From: a virus | DNA length: 64,000 nt | Strand: one strand, 5' to 3' | IMG/VR virus record: IMGVR_UViG_3300014911_000001 | Location: 1 to 64,000 of that record | Shown: piece by piece, positions 17,415 to 26,976 of the stretch | How the letters are laid out: each line of letters opens with the position of its first letter | Position numbering within the stretch: position 1 is the stretch's first letter | Position numbers and translations under genes: made by a program | Notes under the pieces: model-generated | Told to the model about the DNA's origin: nothing | Databases searched by the model: none | Seen by the model: only the letters and a program-made list of their open reading frames with translations

Positions 17415-17427
17415 ACCTCTTTTCTCC

Positions 17428-17490
17428 TTGACAAAGGACTAATACCCAATATATTCTATCAATAATATAGGTTAAGAAGGCTTTTTGTCA
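17428..17490. promoter_or_regulatory. Pair of oppositely oriented sigma70-like promoters (TTGACA-N16-TATATT on each strand)
   Basis: + TTGACA at 17428-33; - TTGACA at 17490-85; between divergent genes. Confidence 0.6.
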
Positions 17491-17511
17491 AGTGAAAAGA
17501 GAGGAGAGCAC

Positions 17512-18441
17512 ATGTTAATGGAATTAATCGATCGCTTTTTAGTTGAAGAGGCTATTAAAGATGTTTATAAGCGTGATCCCAATCGTGTGCGTCCTACCGA
17601 AGCATCAGTAAAGATTGATGGTATCGTGTATGGCTCATGTTTAAGATCCGCATGGTATTCATTGAAGCATTTTAAGCCGCGCCCCCCTGATGCACGCGCC
17701 CTTCGTGTGATGGAGGTTGGTAAAGCTCTAGAACAATTAGAAGCGGAACGGTGTCGACGGATGGGCATTCTGGTTGAGAAACCGTTAGATTTTAAGGTAC
17801 CGAACCCACTGGAACCAAATCAAATTATAAGTGGCCGTAAGGATTTTTATGTGCATGTTAACGGTCATGATTATGTAGTAGAATATAAAACTGGCTCTGG
17901 GTATCCCTTTGAGAAGAACGTCATTAAGGGCGGTAAGTCAACAATCGATCATGTATTACAAATAGCGCTATACCTTCATTTTGGAGACATAAAGCGCGGG
18001 CTTCTCGTATACCTTGATAGAGGATATTCGCACTATAAGGAATTTCTTATCTATGTTGATAATGATGGTCACATATATCAAAACAACAAGGGTATTGGTA
18101 TCAAGGTCGATGATATTTTAATGCGTTATAAAGAGCTTTATCAATATGTTACTAAAGGTATATTACCACCGAGGGATTATATTCCCTTCTATACTTATGA
18201 TATGGCAACCGCTGTTAAAGAAGGACTTCAACATGGACGGATCTCGAAATCAATGGTTACTAAGTGGGAGAAGGGGAAGGCGCCGCTTATGGATTGGCAC
18301 TGTCGTTATTGCCCGTTCATTCAGTATTGTATCTTCGATGTAAAGAATCAGGAGGAAGCGGATGAGAAAATTACTGGTTATAATATCGATAATTTTATTT
18401 TTGAATATTATCGCTCCTTCCTTAGCCAGTGCAAGCGTTAG
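17512..18441 (+). CDS. Cas4-like PD-(D/E)XK exonuclease
   Basis: GSCLRSAWY, ISGRKDF, VVEYKTG, QIALY, WHCRYCPFIQYC. Confidence 0.85.
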   Translation: MLMELIDRFLVEEAIKDVYKRDPNRVRPTEASVKIDGIVYGSCLRSAWYSLKHFKPRPPDARALRVMEVGKALEQLEAERCRRMGILVEKPLDFKVPNPLEPNQIISGRKDFYVHVNGHDYVVEYKTGSGYPFEKNVIKGGKSTIDHVLQIALYLHFGDIKRGLLVYLDRGYSHYKEFLIYVDNDGHIYQNNKGIGIKVDDILMRYKELYQYVTKGILPPRDYIPFYTYDMATAVKEGLQHGRISKSMVTKWEKGKAPLMDWHCRYCPFIQYCIFDVKNQEEADEKITGYNIDNFIFEYYRSFLSQCKR

Positions 18442-19738
18442 CTGTAACCTTAATAGAATCTGGTACAATGCTGCTGATGGCCACCATTATATGGAACTCT
18501 TCATTGTCACATTTGATGACACACCTTTTTGTATTTATGATACATTACGTAACCTTTATTATGATCCTATAAATTTTAAATGGCAGTCGGATCGATATGA
18601 TTGTCGTTTTACGGCAGCATTGTACGAAATAAAGATGGTTCCAGGAACCCGGTATACGATTGCAATTGTTGATACAGATTCATTACATACAATATTAAGT
18701 GATTGCATTTTTGATACCTTTGGTGGTGTTTTGGATACATCACCTGTTTACCATGTTGCTGATTCACATTTAGTTAGATATTCCTTAAAGGTGGGGCGTT
18801 CGATATTTGTGTATGATTCAGCGCAGGTTAATAACATTGGAACATGCCCTGTACCTTTCGATACTGTTTTTGCCAAAGCATTTATGATTAAGAACGCGGA
18901 TGGTACATGTACAATGCTTAGACCAAGTAGGAGCAGCAGATTTAGTGCTGTCTTTGCGGGCTTATATTATGACGGGTGGATATGTGGCCGCTGCTATAAA
19001 TTCATTGTACCTTATGATAGTGTTGAATTCCTTGGTGTTGGATTCTCCGCAAGAACGCGTACAGATCCACCGCCTGATGCTATTGAGGCTGAGCAGATGA
19101 AAATTGTAATAAATAATACTGATACAATTTATATTTCCATACCGGGTCCTGCCTTCATGCATAATTTCTTTGATTCGACAATTATGTTACATGAGGATGA
19201 TACAATTGAGATATGCTTTTGCACACCACCGAATAGTAATGCTGATTGCCATTATCGGGATGCACAGGTACTATTATTTGGTAACATTTATGGTTATGCA
19301 TCAGTCATAAGAACAGAGATGTTTTTCATTGCATCGGGGATACCAGATCTAGAATTTAATCCTATGATGTTTGTTACAGATCCAATGGGCGCGGGGCCTC
19401 TTGTGATAACAATGCGCTGGATTAAATCATATTATGATGAAATGGGAGATTATCCAACTTATAATAGCTTATACAACATCATAAGTTTTTTGTATAGATT
19501 AACACCAGATGAATTCGATTTGAAAATAATGTCCTCGAGGCATTTGCTTACCAATAATACGAAACAGCTCCATACATATGGGATGATTCCATCAACAGTG
19601 ATTTATGGTTCAATTGATGGTGATTATGACCTCTATGTGTCTGGTGATGAATACATAAGACCATATGCCCCTGTTATCATAGCACCAAAGGTTAATACTA
19701 CTAGGCCGCCGATGGCAGCACTATTTATGGGATACTGA
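18362..19738 (+). CDS. Secreted Cys-rich protein 1
   Basis: Signal MRKLLVIISIILFLNIIAPSLASA; GGAGG RBS; many D[ST]x motifs. Confidence 0.75.
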   Translation: MRKLLVIISIILFLNIIAPSLASASVSCNLNRIWYNAADGHHYMELFIVTFDDTPFCIYDTLRNLYYDPINFKWQSDRYDCRFTAALYEIKMVPGTRYTIAIVDTDSLHTILSDCIFDTFGGVLDTSPVYHVADSHLVRYSLKVGRSIFVYDSAQVNNIGTCPVPFDTVFAKAFMIKNADGTCTMLRPSRSSRFSAVFAGLYYDGWICGRCYKFIVPYDSVEFLGVGFSARTRTDPPPDAIEAEQMKIVINNTDTIYISIPGPAFMHNFFDSTIMLHEDDTIEICFCTPPNSNADCHYRDAQVLLFGNIYGYASVIRTEMFFIASGIPDLEFNPMMFVTDPMGAGPLVITMRWIKSYYDEMGDYPTYNSLYNIISFLYRLTPDEFDLKIMSSRHLLTNNTKQLHTYGMIPSTVIYGSIDGDYDLYVSGDEYIRPYAPVIIAPKVNTTRPPMAALFMGY

Positions 19739-20145
19739 TGAAAAAGGTTATTTTTATAATATTGTTAATATATATAATAGCTTTACCTGCCGATATCAAG
19801 GTTTTTATTGATGCTGCTGTCGATACCACATATGGTGTTAATGGTTATAAATGGTGGGTTTTTTATAAATTTGGTGATAGCACATATTTCGTAACAGACT
19901 GGGCACAGCCTATAAAACAATCAAAGATAAGCAATGATACCCTTATTATATTCATTCCATTCTATGTATTCTTTGAAAGTGATAGTTGCATAAGGCAGGT
20001 TGCTCTCTATCCAGTCCCCGGTACTGGTATGAGCTTGCATGTGAGGATAAGAGAGAAGACAGGGGTCGTAAAGAATTCATGTCTAAATATAGACTTTACA
20101 TATTCGTCCTACTTGCGTGGGGGTGTTTGGTATCTCAAGCCATAG
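19738..20145 (+). CDS. Secreted protein 2
   Basis: Signal MKKVIFIILLIYIIALPA|D. Confidence 0.75.
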   Translation: MKKVIFIILLIYIIALPADIKVFIDAAVDTTYGVNGYKWWVFYKFGDSTYFVTDWAQPIKQSKISNDTLIIFIPFYVFFESDSCIRQVALYPVPGTGMSLHVRIREKTGVVKNSCLNIDFTYSSYLRGGVWYLKP

Positions 20146-21074
20146 GTCAGACGGTTATATCAGATAGTGCAGAGAATTGGTATAAATATCGTGTTTCTAG
20201 CATTTACTGTTATGAAGGCTGGGAGCCGCCGGCTTCTGTTATAAACTACATTGGTCTGTGCAGCATACCTTTTGATTCGGTCTTTGCTCATGTATATATG
20301 GTATCAACAGATTCAGGCTGTTTTCCTATATTAATATTAAAGAGGCAGCGCGTATGGTCGGGGTTTCGCTACATAGATGGCAAAGAGAACTGTAATTATA
20401 ATCTCTGTGTGAAGGGGGAGGATAGCTTATTAATTGAAGTTATCTCAAGGGTTAGTGATACTGTGTGCCTTAATGATACCTGCATGGTAACACCATTTGT
20501 ATATCATTATATTAGAACAGACACAACAGAGACGCTTATTAATATTTGTACTAATGGTTCTAATGATGTGATTATCAATGTTTATGGAGACGCTGTTTAT
20601 TATGAAGCCCGCGCCTATCCATTTTTTAATGTCTTAAGAGACCATGCTCTCTTTCCCATAACATCATCATGGATTGAGTGGGTTAGTAGGAAGTTGATGC
20701 ATAAGGATTCAATAAATATTAGTGATTTTTTAGAGATTTATTTTACATCAGAAGCTATGGGGCGTCCTGTTTTGCCAGAAGAATATAAGTATGCGTTAAT
20801 TTATACTGATAGCATAAATTATGGTTATGGGTCACCACGCTGTCCTGTCGTAGATGAATGTTATATTGACTATGGTTACCTATTTAGGTGGGGTGCAAAC
20901 AGTTATTTAAGTGGTTGGCTTACATATTTTAACCCTTATGAAACATCTGGCATAAGGGATACCACAATTAAGGAAGGAGTATATTGGTTTACCACAAGGA
21001 GAAAAACAGATGGCACAAACTCATTCCATAAGGGTTATATTCATCCTACTATTCCTTGGTCTTTCTATCATTAA
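20079..21074 (+). CDS. Secreted Cys-rich protein 3, partly paralogous to protein 1
   Basis: Signal MSKYRLYIFVLLAWGCLVSQAIG; shares (V/I)NxIGxCx(V/I)PFDxVFA with 18362..19738. Confidence 0.75.
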   Translation: MSKYRLYIFVLLAWGCLVSQAIGQTVISDSAENWYKYRVSSIYCYEGWEPPASVINYIGLCSIPFDSVFAHVYMVSTDSGCFPILILKRQRVWSGFRYIDGKENCNYNLCVKGEDSLLIEVISRVSDTVCLNDTCMVTPFVYHYIRTDTTETLINICTNGSNDVIINVYGDAVYYEARAYPFFNVLRDHALFPITSSWIEWVSRKLMHKDSINISDFLEIYFTSEAMGRPVLPEEYKYALIYTDSINYGYGSPRCPVVDECYIDYGYLFRWGANSYLSGWLTYFNPYETSGIRDTTIKEGVYWFTTRRKTDGTNSFHKGYIHPTIPWSFYH

Positions 21075-21498
21075 TGCGCAGTGTGTTCAGCAGGTTAATG
21101 CTGTTTCCAGAAGCGACGGCTTCCCTGATATATTACTGTATATCAATGGTCTTTATGACCGCTCATATGCAATAAAGGTCGAATATGTCATGTGTGATTC
21201 TATTGATACCCTCGTCTATCGTGGTAATGGATCTTGTTTATTAATTGGTAGTGAGCACATACTTGTTTTTAACGATATTAACATCGCACATATAAGAGTC
21301 CCTGTTTTGCCCGGGCATGACTATGATCTATACATATCTGCATTAGGTATAACAACATCGGGAAGTGATACGACAATAAGATATCATTTTTATTATAAGA
21401 TAGAAAATGTGGAGGAATGGATATGCAAAGAATTATTAATAGATACAGTGGTTGTCGATACATTAGATACATTGCCATCCTTTTCATCATCGCATTGA
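21010..21498 (+). CDS. Secreted protein 4
   Basis: Signal ...IFILLFLGLSIINA|Q; PVLPG resembles PVPGTG of protein 2. Confidence 0.75.
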   Translation: MAQTHSIRVIFILLFLGLSIINAQCVQQVNAVSRSDGFPDILLYINGLYDRSYAIKVEYVMCDSIDTLVYRGNGSCLLIGSEHILVFNDINIAHIRVPVLPGHDYDLYISALGITTSGSDTTIRYHFYYKIENVEEWICKELLIDTVVVDTLDTLPSFSSSH

Positions 21499-23948
21499 TC
21501 AGTACTTCATTAGCTGATCCCATTGTATGTGGAACTGAGTCCAATAGTAAATATGAAGATGTTGATAGCATGGATTTGATTTACATTATTAAGGGGGATA
21601 CGAATCATGCACAGATAGGGCGATGTGAGGATTCATATTTTAAGGCTATTTATTCGAAGGCTTTTTATCTAGTGACTGATACAGGTTGTGTCCCCGTTCA
21701 GGGTGCTGGAGGCTCGCCTCTTGAGTGCGATAGTTGTAAATTTTTCTCTACATTCTGGAATATGTTCATCCATACCAATGGTGAGACATTGTATGCGGAG
21801 CAACCGCATTTCAGGGAAAGCGATGATGGAGACACATTTATCTTTTATGATGCCTATTCTCCATTATCGCCGGGGAATAGAATGCTATGGATAAATGTTG
21901 AAGACATCTCACCTGATACGATAAGGATTAGTACTGACCAGAATAATAAAATTCTTAGCATTGGTAAGTTTAAAGAATTGTTATTGTGTGATCCATTTCT
22001 TGGAGCAACTAATTTAAGAGTTGATACGATTTTGTCATGTAATGATAATCTGGTAATAAGCCCGCCGGTTCTTTTTATGGATTCTACAACACTTATAAAT
22101 GGCGATATACATTGGAACGAATTGGATTCTATCGTTCAGTATCGTATTGATGAACCTCTTGATAGCATCGGCATCAGATACTTATGGATGTCTGGTGGTG
22201 AGCAATGCACACTTGATCTGATGATCAAGAACACCCCTATATTGTTCCAGTTCCTAAACAGTTACATCAATGTTGTTGTAGGTGATAGCGAGATGACCCC
22301 TAAAGATTTTGCCGAAGATTTTTGTCCTATCGAATGTACCAGTGCTCATCATTATAATGCTTGCCTTGCAGATACCGATACATTGATAATCTTTAGAATT
22401 GACCCGGGGGCTGCTGGCACAACAGCTGTCGATCAGATTATTGTGCACTATGAAGCTGACACCCTCTTCTCGCATGATACAACCGATGATACATTAATCC
22501 TTAATGATGGTACAACGGAACATATTTATGTACCTGTACCAACAGCAGGTAATGTTGGTTATGATTTGGTTATTGGCGACACATGTGACTGGGGTAACCC
22601 TATAGGATTGCATTCAGGTGGTGGCAGCACAGATACATTGATATTTAGAGTAGGGCGCGGGCTTCGTGTCTATAACGATAGGTTAGAATTATATTTGGAT
22701 ATAGAGAACCCCGGCTTAGAATTTAATGCTACTGAGGATGAATGCACTCTCTATACATTAAGGGTAGCCAATATTGACTCAACACACATAGCAGATAGTT
22801 CCATATCATGGGTTGATCTCAGCATCGCTGTAATGGAGAGCATAAGGGCAGGTAGATTGCGTGTATTGTGGGACCCAACCAATCAGGCGTCCAGTTGTAC
22901 TGACAATTTGACTGATACGGTCTCTCATGTAAGGACAGTAAGATTAATACCTCCTATACAGGCTCAATCAATAGGCGATACAGGGATATGTATCTATTTG
23001 GATTCAGTTGCTATAGGTCAGGCATGTGGATGTAATGCTATGGAACCTCTCTATAAGGAAGGAAGAGCTATAGGATTACATGCAGATGCATCACTCTTCA
23101 CTGTTAGTGGCGGTTATCTAACATTGAAACACCCTTTCATCTCTAAGGTGTTTTTCAATTATAAATCAACATCGTGTGTTGATACAGGTGATAGTAGTCC
23201 TAAAGGGTCTAAAATGTATGATTATTTGGTTATTAATGCTAACGAACCATTAGTTGCAACTGGTATTACAGCTGATGAAACTACGAAGGTAGAATTTTCA
23301 TTAGCATACGATGAGGATCTATTCACCATTGACACAACGGCACCTGATACATGCCAGCTTACTATAAGGGATAGGAGCATAACATGGAGATATATTGATA
23401 CAAGTGTTGCTGATACCATATGTAATCGTTGTGGAGGCGGCGCTTCACTCTCTGGATGGGATACAATACAGATGTTTCCTCAGTATAGCAATTGTATTGT
23501 TCTTAACAGTACATCGTCTGATGGTGTGTTAGATGTAATGATTGATCCTGATAACGACATGAATATGCCTGTTTATAGGTGGCGATCTAACTATAATAGC
23601 TCCTTCCAGACGATTATTTTACATGTAGTACAACCATTGATTGCAACAGACTCAACATTGGATACGATTAAGATATTGTTCAGGTATAGGAGGCCGAGCG
23701 CTCATGCAGATATAAAACTTGACTATAGGCTATTGGATAGTACACGCAGTACAATAGCTAGTGGTTCTAATATTACAATTGTAGGATCTCCATCCCCTAC
23801 AGGACCACCGGTAACATATACATACAAAATAACATGTGATGATATAAACATAACAAGATACATCCAACTTGACATAAAGATGAGGAGCAAATATGGTGCG
23901 CCGATTTATCTGGGTGACATTAGTATTATTTATAAGCGCCGCTATTAA
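21423..23948 (+). CDS. Large secreted Cys-rich fibre-like protein 5
   Basis: Signal ...YIAILFIIALISTSLA|DP; IADSSISW / IRDRSITW and GRGLRV..RLEL fibre-type repeats; about 30+ D[ST]x motifs. Confidence 0.75.
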   Translation: MQRIINRYSGCRYIRYIAILFIIALISTSLADPIVCGTESNSKYEDVDSMDLIYIIKGDTNHAQIGRCEDSYFKAIYSKAFYLVTDTGCVPVQGAGGSPLECDSCKFFSTFWNMFIHTNGETLYAEQPHFRESDDGDTFIFYDAYSPLSPGNRMLWINVEDISPDTIRISTDQNNKILSIGKFKELLLCDPFLGATNLRVDTILSCNDNLVISPPVLFMDSTTLINGDIHWNELDSIVQYRIDEPLDSIGIRYLWMSGGEQCTLDLMIKNTPILFQFLNSYINVVVGDSEMTPKDFAEDFCPIECTSAHHYNACLADTDTLIIFRIDPGAAGTTAVDQIIVHYEADTLFSHDTTDDTLILNDGTTEHIYVPVPTAGNVGYDLVIGDTCDWGNPIGLHSGGGSTDTLIFRVGRGLRVYNDRLELYLDIENPGLEFNATEDECTLYTLRVANIDSTHIADSSISWVDLSIAVMESIRAGRLRVLWDPTNQASSCTDNLTDTVSHVRTVRLIPPIQAQSIGDTGICIYLDSVAIGQACGCNAMEPLYKEGRAIGLHADASLFTVSGGYLTLKHPFISKVFFNYKSTSCVDTGDSSPKGSKMYDYLVINANEPLVATGITADETTKVEFSLAYDEDLFTIDTTAPDTCQLTIRDRSITWRYIDTSVADTICNRCGGGASLSGWDTIQMFPQYSNCIVLNSTSSDGVLDVMIDPDNDMNMPVYRWRSNYNSSFQTIILHVVQPLIATDSTLDTIKILFRYRRPSAHADIKLDYRLLDSTRSTIASGSNITIVGSPSPTGPPVTYTYKITCDDINITRYIQLDIKMRSKYGAPIYLGDISIIYKRRY

Positions 23949-26900
23949 TGCTTATCCTGTTACAGCAGTTAATAGTCTTCCTGATAGCTTTACTACATCT
24001 TTAAGGATTATTGATATCGAAGGCCGGCCTATTAAGGTTTCCTCTGTTGATACGATTGTTATTGAGACATTTTATGATACTATTAACACGCATGACACAA
24101 TTTTATTTCTTACATCATATACGAGCATTTTCCAGTTTGTTGAGTGGATCAAATATTATAGTGGAAATTATTATGTGAGGTTGAAGCCCGGCTTCGGTAG
24201 TAAAGGGACAAGTACTGATTCAATAAGAGGGCCGTGGCCTCCAGTTATGCATGAGATTTATCAGGGGGATACATTATACTTGTATACCCGTATTTACTTA
24301 CATATAAGGTGGGCACCATTTGAACATGCGTGGAATGATCAATTAAGTTACATACGACTATTATACATATGGAATTCAACAGCAAGCAAGTATGTCCTCC
24401 ACAAGATATCTACAGTGCAATTTGATCCAATTACTATTGGAAGGACAAATAGACATGAACTTTATAAAGAGGGATTGTTTTGGGGGCTTAACCTACGCAA
24501 GATTTACTTTCATTGTGATACATCAATGACTGATACAATATGCTACTTGCATTACCCCATTGATCTAGAACTTATCCATAAGCGATTACCAACATATGAT
24601 CGTTATTTCATCTTAAATAGTCTTAATATGTGTCGCTTTGTTGCTGATAGTGATAGCTCAGCATCAAAAGCATCTCCCATAAAACACATAATAAACGCGG
24701 GCTTCATTGACGACATAGCATCAATTATCTCGCCAGATACATCATTAGATGGTATAGGTTATATTAGTGATATTAGTACGCATCAAGATACATATGTAAT
24801 TGTTATAAATGGTATAACAAAGAGGAAATATCGTTTCTCTGGTATAACAGAGAGTGATTCACTTAATCCTGTTGATTCTGTTGTTGTTTGCAAAGGTTAT
24901 GGTGTTTCTGATAGTGTATTATATTTCCGTGCTCATAATGATACGGCTGTCATTGTTCTCAAGGCGCTGGCTTCCGACTCCTTTTACATCGCACTTTGTG
25001 CCATTGTCAAGGTTGACACAACCATTGATAGCTCAAGACATTTAACTTATATTGATTACTTACCAGTCGGGATCTTTAAGATTCCGCGTCGAACAAGTGG
25101 CGGCGGCTTAATAACAAGATTCATATCATGTGATCACTCGGACTTTCATATCGTGCAGCCCGGATTAATGCCGATTGCTTATGATACTCTATCAGAAATG
25201 CCCGATACAATAGGCGCGCCTCTCTTCAGATGGGTTGCTCTTACAAAAGGGATTATAACACATAATGATTCAACTAAGCTAGTAGCCGTTGCCATAATTA
25301 AGGACACAGTGCTTGTGTGGGATGTAACGAATGATACGACCATTATGTTTGGTTTACCTATCAGTATGGATACGACATACTATTATACTGAAATAGCATC
25401 CCAACCATATGATACATCCCTAATCGTATTCCTCCTTGATAATGATGATGAATTATTGTATATCCTTACCATCGACTATGATCTTTCATGGGATACTACA
25501 AGTATTCATTTACCATACTTAGGTCAAAGGAAATTTGTTTTTGCAACAACCTGTATTGATACAGGACCTTATTATGAGTATCCTATAGGGTGTAACTGTG
25601 ATACATCTGATACAGTATGCGATTCACTAAAATGGGATTACGAACTTATAGAACCTATAACAAAATATTCCTATCATACCGTTTACCCGCTCGTATATGA
25701 TAAAAAAGGCAAGTATTATATATTACTTAACTTAAATGATTCAATCGATGTCAGATCTGATTCTGTGATATATTTCTGGTCCATGACAATAAGGGATCTC
25801 ATAGAAGATGCCTTTGATAGCCTTCAATGGATCGATGTTAAACCAACATTAGCCGGTAGATCTAATTTGCTCCATCAGCCTTTCATTTATTACAAACTTC
25901 CTGGTTCATGGCATTGGGATATAAGAGGTGGCACATATGGACCTGCCGTCGGTTGGAATAATAGTTCTGTTTATCATGAATTAAACTGTCGCTATGCGTA
26001 CCTCTTATCACCGATACGTAACAACTTATCAGATGGGCGGCTTCGATATTGTTTGAAGGCATACCGTAATTATCCTTTGCGTTTGGGATTTGTTTATATA
26101 GATCCCAGTGGTATTTCAAATCCATCAGGAGTATATCCATGTGTTTATAGGATAAGTTTAAAGGGGAAATATTTTTCTAGCACTCGTATGTCAAGTTCAT
26201 GGTATTGGGCACACAGGGTTTATCCACGTTATTCATATGACTTCCAGATAGAGGTAGATCCCGGTACAGTGCCTGAAATGATTATAGGTACATGGACATA
26301 TACATTTACAGAAAATACTACATATGTTGAGACATATACTGACACGATTTTTGTACGAAATCAGATTAACCATACAGGTACTAGATATTACATAGAAGGA
26401 TTTGATTTTGCTAATATTGATAGTCTATTTCTTGTTAATTGGTGGGAGCATGGCTATCCATGGTATTCAACACTCCAATTTGACTTTTATTTTATTGATT
26501 ATACACCGCCGCGAAGTGGTGCTAGCATTACTGTTCTTGGGTATCTTGATAAACACCAAGCCGACACATTATTTAAAAATGATAGCATCTGTGGTAGATG
26601 CATCGATACACTAAATCCTTACTATATCAATGTAGTGCATAGAACAGCTAGTGGATTAATATCATTGACTAACGGGTTTATAGGCTTGATTATGGACAGA
26701 GAATTTGATTTCCGCAATGATGGATGGTTACAGGGGATACCTACATATTATTGGGATAAAAATGCTGAAACATGGCATCCAACTGGCGTTGATAGCCATA
26801 TTATTGATCTTCACATTTATTATGGAAGGCCGGGCTTCATCGATGCAACACCTAACTGTGTAGTTACCTACAATGGTTATCGATACCGCTCTCGCCATAT

Positions 26901-26976
26901 TATTAATCCTAATGAATATGGGACGTGGGGGTTAAGAAGGCGGCGCTTCTGGAATGGTATTAAGCTCCCGCCGTGA
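23893..26976 (+). CDS. Large secreted protein 6 (1027 aa)
   Basis: Signal MVRRFIWVTLVLFISAAINA|YP; beta-rich; about 40 D[ST]x motifs. Confidence 0.75.
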   Translation: MVRRFIWVTLVLFISAAINAYPVTAVNSLPDSFTTSLRIIDIEGRPIKVSSVDTIVIETFYDTINTHDTILFLTSYTSIFQFVEWIKYYSGNYYVRLKPGFGSKGTSTDSIRGPWPPVMHEIYQGDTLYLYTRIYLHIRWAPFEHAWNDQLSYIRLLYIWNSTASKYVLHKISTVQFDPITIGRTNRHELYKEGLFWGLNLRKIYFHCDTSMTDTICYLHYPIDLELIHKRLPTYDRYFILNSLNMCRFVADSDSSASKASPIKHIINAGFIDDIASIISPDTSLDGIGYISDISTHQDTYVIVINGITKRKYRFSGITESDSLNPVDSVVVCKGYGVSDSVLYFRAHNDTAVIVLKALASDSFYIALCAIVKVDTTIDSSRHLTYIDYLPVGIFKIPRRTSGGGLITRFISCDHSDFHIVQPGLMPIAYDTLSEMPDTIGAPLFRWVALTKGIITHNDSTKLVAVAIIKDTVLVWDVTNDTTIMFGLPISMDTTYYYTEIASQPYDTSLIVFLLDNDDELLYILTIDYDLSWDTTSIHLPYLGQRKFVFATTCIDTGPYYEYPIGCNCDTSDTVCDSLKWDYELIEPITKYSYHTVYPLVYDKKGKYYILLNLNDSIDVRSDSVIYFWSMTIRDLIEDAFDSLQWIDVKPTLAGRSNLLHQPFIYYKLPGSWHWDIRGGTYGPAVGWNNSSVYHELNCRYAYLLSPIRNNLSDGRLRYCLKAYRNYPLRLGFVYIDPSGISNPSGVYPCVYRISLKGKYFSSTRMSSSWYWAHRVYPRYSYDFQIEVDPGTVPEMIIGTWTYTFTENTTYVETYTDTIFVRNQINHTGTRYYIEGFDFANIDSLFLVNWWEHGYPWYSTLQFDFYFIDYTPPRSGASITVLGYLDKHQADTLFKNDSICGRCIDTLNPYYINVVHRTASGLISLTNGFIGLIMDREFDFRNDGWLQGIPTYYWDKNAETWHPTGVDSHIIDLHIYYGRPGFIDATPNCVVTYNGYRYRSRHIINPNEYGTWGLRRRRFWNGIKLPP

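Follow-up and report, generated by a model that had tools for sequence, protein, structure and literature searches.

The stretch of DNA analysed here, which we call the window, is the first 64 kb of the IMG/VR virus record IMGVR_UViG_3300014911_000001, a single record of 175,796 bp that CheckV rates as complete. Positions 18362-26976 of the window are occupied by six genes (g1 to g6), all on the plus strand, which together make up 8.6 kb or ~5% of the coding capacity of the phage. Their products look like Sec-exported proteins, are rich in Cys and carry many copies of a D-(S/T)-hydrophobic tripeptide, which resembles the O-glycosylation sequon of Bacteroidota and is referred to below as a sequon in that putative sense. 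We counted the motif in a strict form, D[ST][AILVMT], and in a broad form, D-[ST]-[LIVTAS], and took the expected numbers from composition-preserving shuffles of each protein.

The first gene, g1 (18362-19738, 458 amino acids, aa), begins with the predicted signal peptide MRKLLVIISIILFLNIIAPSLASA, cut before S, and its product has 11 Cys and 8 strict or 10 broad sequons. It is followed by the short g2 (19738-20145, 135 aa), with the predicted signal peptide MKKVIFIILLIYIIALPA cut before D, 2 Cys and 3 strict sequons, and by g3 (20079-21074, 331 aa), whose start we place at an ATG internal to the listed TTG open reading frame (ORF), whose signal peptide is predicted to end in LLAWGCLVSQAIG before Q, and which has 11 Cys and 8 strict sequons. 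The predicted signal peptide of g4 (21010-21498, 162 aa) ends in FILLFLGLSIINA, again before Q, and its product contains 4 Cys and 6 strict sequons. In g5 (21423-23948, 841 aa) a long basic n-region precedes IAILFIIALISTSLA, predicted to be cut before D; this protein has 24 Cys, 23 of them past the signal peptide, and 20 strict or 30 broad sequons among 34 D[ST] dipeptides. The largest protein, g6 (23893-26976, 1027 aa), has the predicted signal peptide MVRRFIWVTLVLFISAAINA, cut before Y, 16 Cys, and 28 strict or 37 broad sequons among 40 D[ST]. The sequence-only reading from which this work started had counted 34, 40 and 8 motifs by eye in g5, g6 and PolB, respectively, and these figures proved exact for D[ST] dipeptides. 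Its description of the proteins as Cys-rich also holds, with Cys making up 2.30% of the six proteins and 0.93% of the rest of the genome.

The genes are tightly interlocked. Shine-Dalgarno (SD) sites (AGGAGG, GGAGGA, GAGGAG or AAGGAG) lie upstream of the starts of g1, g4, g5 and g6, and the start of g2 is coupled to the stop of g1 through ATGA. Every downstream start other than that of g2 lies 56-80 nt within the preceding gene, giving out-of-frame overlaps at 18362-18441, 20079-20145, 21010-21074, 21423-21498 and 23893-23948. The signal-peptide codons of g1, g3, g4, g5 and g6 fall almost exactly in these overlaps, an arrangement that is kept in all strains and suggests translational coupling together with a dual coding constraint.

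The usual view is that the proteins of tailed phages fold in the cytoplasm. All six N-termini show, on a heuristic reading, the n/h/c anatomy of classical signal peptides that had been noted before: the n-region is basic, the hydrophobic core spans 10-15 residues and a small-x-small motif marks the cleavage site. The predicted sites in g1 to g6 are ASA/S, LPA/D, AIG/Q, INA/Q, SLA/D and INA/Y, the slash marking the cut. Only one other 19-residue hydrophobic window was found in the six proteins; it is internal, near residue 353 of g6, and none lies at a terminus. The core sequences vary among three to four strain variants but stay hydrophobic; the cleavage region is conserved, as are the first residues of the mature protein. 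A lipobox, L-[AS]-[GA]-C, was not found at the end of any of the six signal peptides. Processing by signal peptidase II as lipoproteins was rejected: of the six signals that of g3 alone holds a Cys (AWGC, or AWWC in other strains), which does not form a lipobox, and the AIG/Q site follows it. The C-terminal sorting domain of the type IX secretion system (T9SS; Por_Secre_tail/TIGR04183 or type B) had no match in the six proteins at E <= 1 in Pfam and NCBIfam, and a search of the whole genome for PF18962 was empty; the proteins lack this domain and are thus not T9SS cargo.

The excess of the motif is evident in each protein. Observed and expected strict counts for g1 to g6 are 8 and 1.9, 3 and 0.3, 8 and 0.9, 6 and 0.8, 20 and 5.3, and 28 and 4.9, which is 3- to 9-fold above the shuffles (z 4.7 to 11.3). 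When the mature parts are pooled, 73 strict motifs stand against 14.0 expected (5.2x) and 82 broad motifs against 15.8 (z 17.6), so that Asp, Ser and Thr composition, the alternative named in the sequence-only reading, is excluded as the source. The motif is also position-specific. At -1 only Asp is enriched, the other 19 residues, Glu and Asn included, lying at 0.19-1.23x, and at +2 L, I, V, T and S are favoured, K, R and Q are absent, and D, E, N and P are depleted. The reversed motif stands at 1.13x, and D[ST] followed by N, E, Q, P, D, K, R, H, W or Y at 0.65x. The Campylobacter N-glycosylation sequon D/E-x-N-x-S/T (0.91x) was rejected. A word at the DNA level was likewise ruled out as the origin of the motif, which is encoded by 13 different codon pairs; the signal therefore lies at the protein level. 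Spacing of the sequons is irregular, at a density of ~3 per 100 residues, and 97 of the 107 D[ST] dipeptides match the experimentally defined D(S/T)(A/I/L/V/M/T/S/C/G/F) (PMC8550257).

Across the phage proteome the excess follows predicted export. Signal-like N-termini occur in 15 proteins of 100 aa or more, and these contain 105 motifs where 29.1 are expected (3.6x), as compared with 114 where 120.5 are expected (0.95x) in the 141 others (Mann-Whitney p = 1.5e-5); the structural module, 22.5 k residues in all, stands at 0.88x and the replication genes at 1.13x. Every protein with z >= 4 has a signal or membrane segment or is part of such a protein, and those beyond the six are encoded at 81141-81830, 81831-82538 and 170343-171257 and by the C-terminal piece, at 2-1099, of a repeat-rich fibre-like gene. 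The sites are conserved as well: the most divergent strain keeps 72 of the 73 motif sites as compared with 99 of 121 control X[ST]hydrophobic tripeptides (p = 1.4e-4), and all 73 motif Asp as compared with 146 of 158 other Asp (p = 0.009), and motif counts are steady or rising across strains (in g6, for example, from 28 to 32). The motif excess is thus real, position-specific, conserved and restricted to extracytoplasmic proteins of the phage. This restriction matches the published signature of general O-glycosylation in Bacteroidota, the sole bacterial O-glycosylation system with a defined sequon, in which Asp at -1 is nearly obligatory, L, I, V, T, A or S make up ~90% of the residues at +2, and the motif is enriched in non-cytoplasmic proteins mainly of Bacteroidota (in the GTDB sense) and Fibrobacterota (PMC12871550).

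All relatives of the block are at strain level, namely two IMG/VR contigs and three Logan contigs. The six ORFs are intact in them with identical ATG starts, g4 being intact in all four strains. The ratio of nonsynonymous to synonymous substitution rates (dN/dS) is 0.03-0.16 and the genes are under purifying selection; protein identity to the most divergent strain is 87-94% for the six, as compared with 93% for PolB and primase. The genes are somewhat faster-evolving than those of PolB and primase and not hypervariable. These low ratios, and identities slightly under that of PolB, rule out hypervariable receptor-binding genes.

Searches for homologues were otherwise empty. Pfam, PHROGs, NCBIfam and PADLOC gave no match to the six proteins, nor did sequence searches of the PDB; the ESM Atlas gave no usable match, and a tblastn search of 50,697 phage genomes with g1 and g3 gave none. 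A word-indexed search of 5.8 billion proteins with g5 and g6 returned their own clusters only, a full phmmer search of 1.84 billion representatives with g6 did the same, and g5 has no homologue outside its own 90% cluster. As far as such comparisons reach, the six proteins are ORFans. A feature search of the Atlas with g5 gave sub-threshold leads to viral proteins and Mtd_N. Within the block, a two-Cys domain of ~70 residues is common to g1 and g3 and, weakly, to g5; in g1 it lies in residues ~120-215, and the N-terminal domain of g3 is paralogous to it (E 2e-7, with this proteome alone searched). A profile of this domain found only the sister strain in IMG/VR. Windowed hidden Markov models (HMMs) detected no internal repeats in the six proteins, and AlphaFold2 with four-strain alignments reached a mean confidence (pLDDT) of 30 for g5 and 26 for g6. 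Because the block has no homologues at all, capture from a host is rejected as its origin: no host locus matches it, and the possibility raised earlier that a host surface-protein locus had been taken up wholesale is ruled out.

The phage itself is a 176-kb contractile-tailed, lytic-type, myovirus-like genome. Over its whole length it has a plus-strand structural module at ~100-170 kb (large terminase, portal, tail sheath and head proteins) and replication genes for a superfamily 2 helicase, primase-helicase, PolB, uracil-DNA glycosylase, ribonucleotide reductase and RecA. The closest cultured phages are distant (identity <=22% for PolB and <=25% for the large terminase), and no PolB relatives were found at E <= 1e-20. 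The six genes form an island flanked by two minus-strand replication operons, those of primase-helicase and PolB, and so lie in the replication module, away from the structural module. The sole non-coding gap 5' of the block, 17415-17511, holds a divergent pair of TTGACA-16-TATATT matches (11/12) of sigma-70 type. One, at 17428..17455 on the plus strand, points towards the block, and its minus-directed twin (17491-17464) faces the primase-helicase operon. The first gene of the transcription unit encodes a cytoplasmic Cas4-like PD-(D/E)XK nuclease (17512..18441, plus strand, 309 aa) with a C-terminal Cys cluster, no sequons and a dN/dS of 0.03, and over its final 80 nt it overlaps the start of g1, where the signal peptide is encoded. 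The nuclease gene and the block are probably transcribed from this consensus promoter by host RNA polymerase. At the other end g6 is convergent with the minus-strand gene for a 292-aa protein that precedes PolB, 17 nt (26960-26976) lying inside the end of that gene; no intrinsic terminator was found between g6 and the minus-strand PolB-side transcription unit.

The one glycosylation gene found in the phage lies outside the window. A 634-aa fusion of a GT4 (GT-B) and a GT2 (GT-A) glycosyltransferase, without a signal peptide, is encoded at 82805-84709, downstream of a TTGAAA-16-TATAAT promoter and adjoining the convergent genes for the exported, Cys-rich, sequon-rich paralogues at 81141-81830 and 81831-82538. 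This enzyme could edit the glycan on the sequons. Searches of the phage for a Wzy_C/PglL-type transferase, PMT_2 or a Wzx flippase were negative, and transfer of a glycan to protein would therefore depend on the host.

A group of predicted exported proteins closes the tail module, where four consecutive signal-peptide genes occupy 170343-175796. Two encode fibre-like paralogues of 651 aa, 67% identical to each other and with no sequon excess. The last gene, repeat-rich and fibre-like, is interrupted where the contig ends, with repeats that resume at 2-1099 of the window; the record is therefore probably circularly permuted and broken inside a repeat.

On balance, we lean towards the view that the block encodes a phage-borne, exported and host-glycosylated six-protein assembly of the cell envelope. 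In this scheme the block and the nuclease gene would be co-transcribed by host RNA polymerase; the six proteins would enter the Sec pathway through cleavable signal peptides and fold in the periplasm with disulfide bonds; and a host general O-glycosylation system of the Bacteroidota type would modify many of the D-(S/T)-hydrophobic sequons, the glycan possibly being remodelled by the phage GT4+GT2 enzyme. Export together with selection of the sequons for glycosylation is a reasonably probable reading of the protein sequences. Three features, namely the place in the replication module, a promoter of host type and coupled translation, speak more for an early, stoichiometric assembly outside the cytoplasm than for virion parts. 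As to the role, our best guess is that the glycoproteins would assemble in the envelope of infected cells, separately from the virion, and would mask or remodel the surface, as in superinfection exclusion or the hiding of a receptor, although this specific envelope-remodelling role is doubtful and is put forward tentatively.

Several observations weigh against this interpretation. Neither folds nor homologues that would speak for a function were found, the signal peptides were called by heuristics, and the early timing is read from a promoter consensus. Three small signal-peptide proteins of the phage and the fibre-like proteins at 171270 and 173238 show no motif excess. The D[ST] dipeptide usually precedes a strand-like hydrophobic run, which leaves room for a structural reading of the motif. 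The expression signals are a further difficulty: SD-like sites precede 56% of the genes as compared with 10% of random positions, and near-consensus sigma-70 promoters (>=11/12) number 28 genome-wide as compared with 6.8 in shuffles. Gln stands at +1 in only ~5 of 16 predicted cleavage sites of the phage, those of g3 and g4 among them. For comparison, Gln follows the cleavage site in a mean of 71% of cases in Bacteroidetes and in below 9% in most Chlorobi (PMC5837995). Thirteen of the 28 promoters fall within the 4.5% of the genome that is non-coding, and perfect TTGACA-16-TATAAT matches occur at 77802 and 92803. The Bacteroidia -7 box, TAnnTTTG, is not enriched in the phage genome. Bacteroidia, Chlorobia and Rhodothermaceae do without SD-led initiation, while Fibrobacteres retain detectable SD signals (PMC3155529, PMC9976891). 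SD use and sigma-70 promoters therefore make the phage a poor fit to the lineages with a demonstrated glycosylation system, and the Bacteroidota host was an assumption of the sequence-only reading; these features are unlike those of Bacteroidia, Chlorobia and Rhodothermaceae.

Other evidence bears on the host from the opposite side. Two features, the sequon signature and a DUF3244 domain, suggest Bacteroidota or Fibrobacterota, and the presence of Gln at +1 in ~5 of 16 predicted cleavage sites can also be counted for Bacteroidota or another lineage of the Fibrobacterota-Chlorobiota-Bacteroidota (FCB) group. The domain scores above its cut-off in a 77-aa gene product without a signal peptide (119306-119539), encoded between the tail sheath and the next head- or tube-like genes; T9SS C-terminal-domain models matched the same product below their cut-offs. 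Among 14 control genomes DUF3244 was matched in Bacteroides only. A search of 301 Bacteroidota genomes with the phage glycosyltransferase gave no match at E <= 1e-8, and a TnpB scan of genome contigs gave a 28% match in Runella only, which is uninformative for the host. Where the two sets of evidence intersect we infer an SD-using lineage of the FCB group, such as Fibrobacterota. That the host lies outside Bacteroidia and Chlorobia, for example in Fibrobacterota or in a deep, possibly thermophilic FCB branch where the sequon system operates and is exploited early by the phage, is in its full form conceivable and rather less probable than its opposite.

Of the explanations that compete with a host-glycosylated envelope assembly, the one that survives best makes the six proteins appendages of the virion (fibres, spikes or decoration proteins) that mature and become glycosylated in the periplasm and join the particle at or after lysis. 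The fibre-like tail-end proteins of the same genome (170343-175796, 2-1099) do bear signal peptides, and the sub-threshold leads obtained with g5 would suit such a role. Yet the block lies between the primase-helicase and PolB operons, with a sigma-70 promoter and a nuclease gene upstream and the structural module far away, and its place in the replication module behind such a promoter argues against a virion role. The absence of any PHROG, Pfam or PDB match to a fibre or tailspike and of internal repeats also argues against it, as does the fact that the true fibre-like, signal-peptide-bearing paralogues of this phage show no sequon excess (1.33x). We consider the appendage explanation unlikely. 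Of what the sequence-only reading proposed overall, the look of export and the motif excess stand, and the block is distinct from a captured locus; the Bacteroidota host was assumed, and the virion spike or fibre has no support in view of the replication module, the early-type promoter, and the lack of fibre family matches and internal repeats.

A little less likely again is a structural role for D-(S/T)-hydrophobic in beta-rich secreted proteins, for instance as an Asx/ST cap where a strand begins or as a metal site, with the motif no sequon and the host outside the FCB group. Alternating hydrophobic, strand-like runs do follow most motifs, and the expression signals are unlike those of Bacteroidia. 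A structural role would, however, have to explain why at least four unrelated exported families (g1/g3, g5, g6 and 81141/81831) show the excess and the beta-rich, cytoplasm-folded tail and head proteins do not (0.88x), why the preferences at -1 and +2 closely match the published sequon, and why the motifs are irregularly spaced. Least probable is that the N-terminal segments are uncleaved signal anchors tethering a periplasm-facing complex to the inner membrane, for although the n-region of g5 is long (16 residues) and strongly basic, cleavage was called without a trained tool, and the overlap-based coupling suggests a stoichiometric complex, small residues at -3 and -1 come right after the 10-15-residue core in all six. 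These positions, like the first mature residues, are kept as the core varies, which is the usual pattern of cleaved signals.

The proposed host-glycosylated assembly has its nearest counterparts in cellular proteins. Like the six, TfsA and TfsB of Tannerella forsythia, substrates of Bacteroidota O-glycosylation, combine signal peptides with D-(S/T)-x sequons (PMC12871550, PMC8550257), and the -1 and +2 preferences and the restriction to non-cytoplasmic proteins are the same in these substrates as in the phage proteins. Foreign sequons are glycosylated in T. forsythia, Bacteroides thetaiotaomicron and Flavobacterium johnsoniae (PMC12871550). Work on T. forsythia identified 312 sites across 145 glycoproteins, TfsB being the most heavily glycosylated, with 20 predicted sites (PMC8550257); with 28-37 sites in 1027 aa, g6 has a higher density. 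The known substrates are encoded by cells, whereas the putative ones proposed here are encoded by a phage and their glycosylation is a prediction; the six also lack the T9SS C-terminal domain, and their expression signals are unlike those of Bacteroidia. Among phages, those of Porphyromonas gingivalis encode proteins of unknown function whose signal peptides follow the Bacteroidetes Q-rule and which have been proposed as modifiers of the host envelope (PMC10367356). Two of the six proteins here (g3 and g4, with Gln at +1) share the Q-rule likeness; glycosylation is unmentioned in that paper (PMC10367356), and there is no sequence similarity to the six. The present case differs in its six linked genes, 8.6 kb in all, its five-fold sequon excess and its 176-kb myovirus-like genome.

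Llp of T5, Bor and Lom of lambda and Cor of phi80 are phage envelope proteins that serve superinfection exclusion or change the cell surface. They are exported, function in the envelope of infected or lysogenic cells and often have host-type promoters, and each is a single small lipoprotein or outer-membrane protein. The six proteins differ from them in reaching 1027 aa and in having no lipobox, beta-barrel signature or homology to them, so that the likeness would be a functional analogy.

In a literature search we found no paper on sequon-rich phage proteins or on the use by phages of a host protein-glycosylation code. What would be new here is that a phage encodes putative substrates of sequon-directed O-glycosylation, at what appears to be record density and alongside host signals that fit the known system poorly. 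If the interpretation is true, phages would have a new route by which to dress or disguise the infected cell, and possibly their own parts, with host glycans, and the sequon excess would provide a sequence-only host marker for uncultured phages. Because the expression signals of the phage do not fit Bacteroidia, the known range of sequon-directed O-glycosylation could also widen. Should the host indeed be an SD-using lineage, the system would work well beyond the lineages in which it has been shown, and the phage would use it at an early stage of infection to make an assembly of six hyper-glycosylated, disulfide-bonded proteins in the host envelope.

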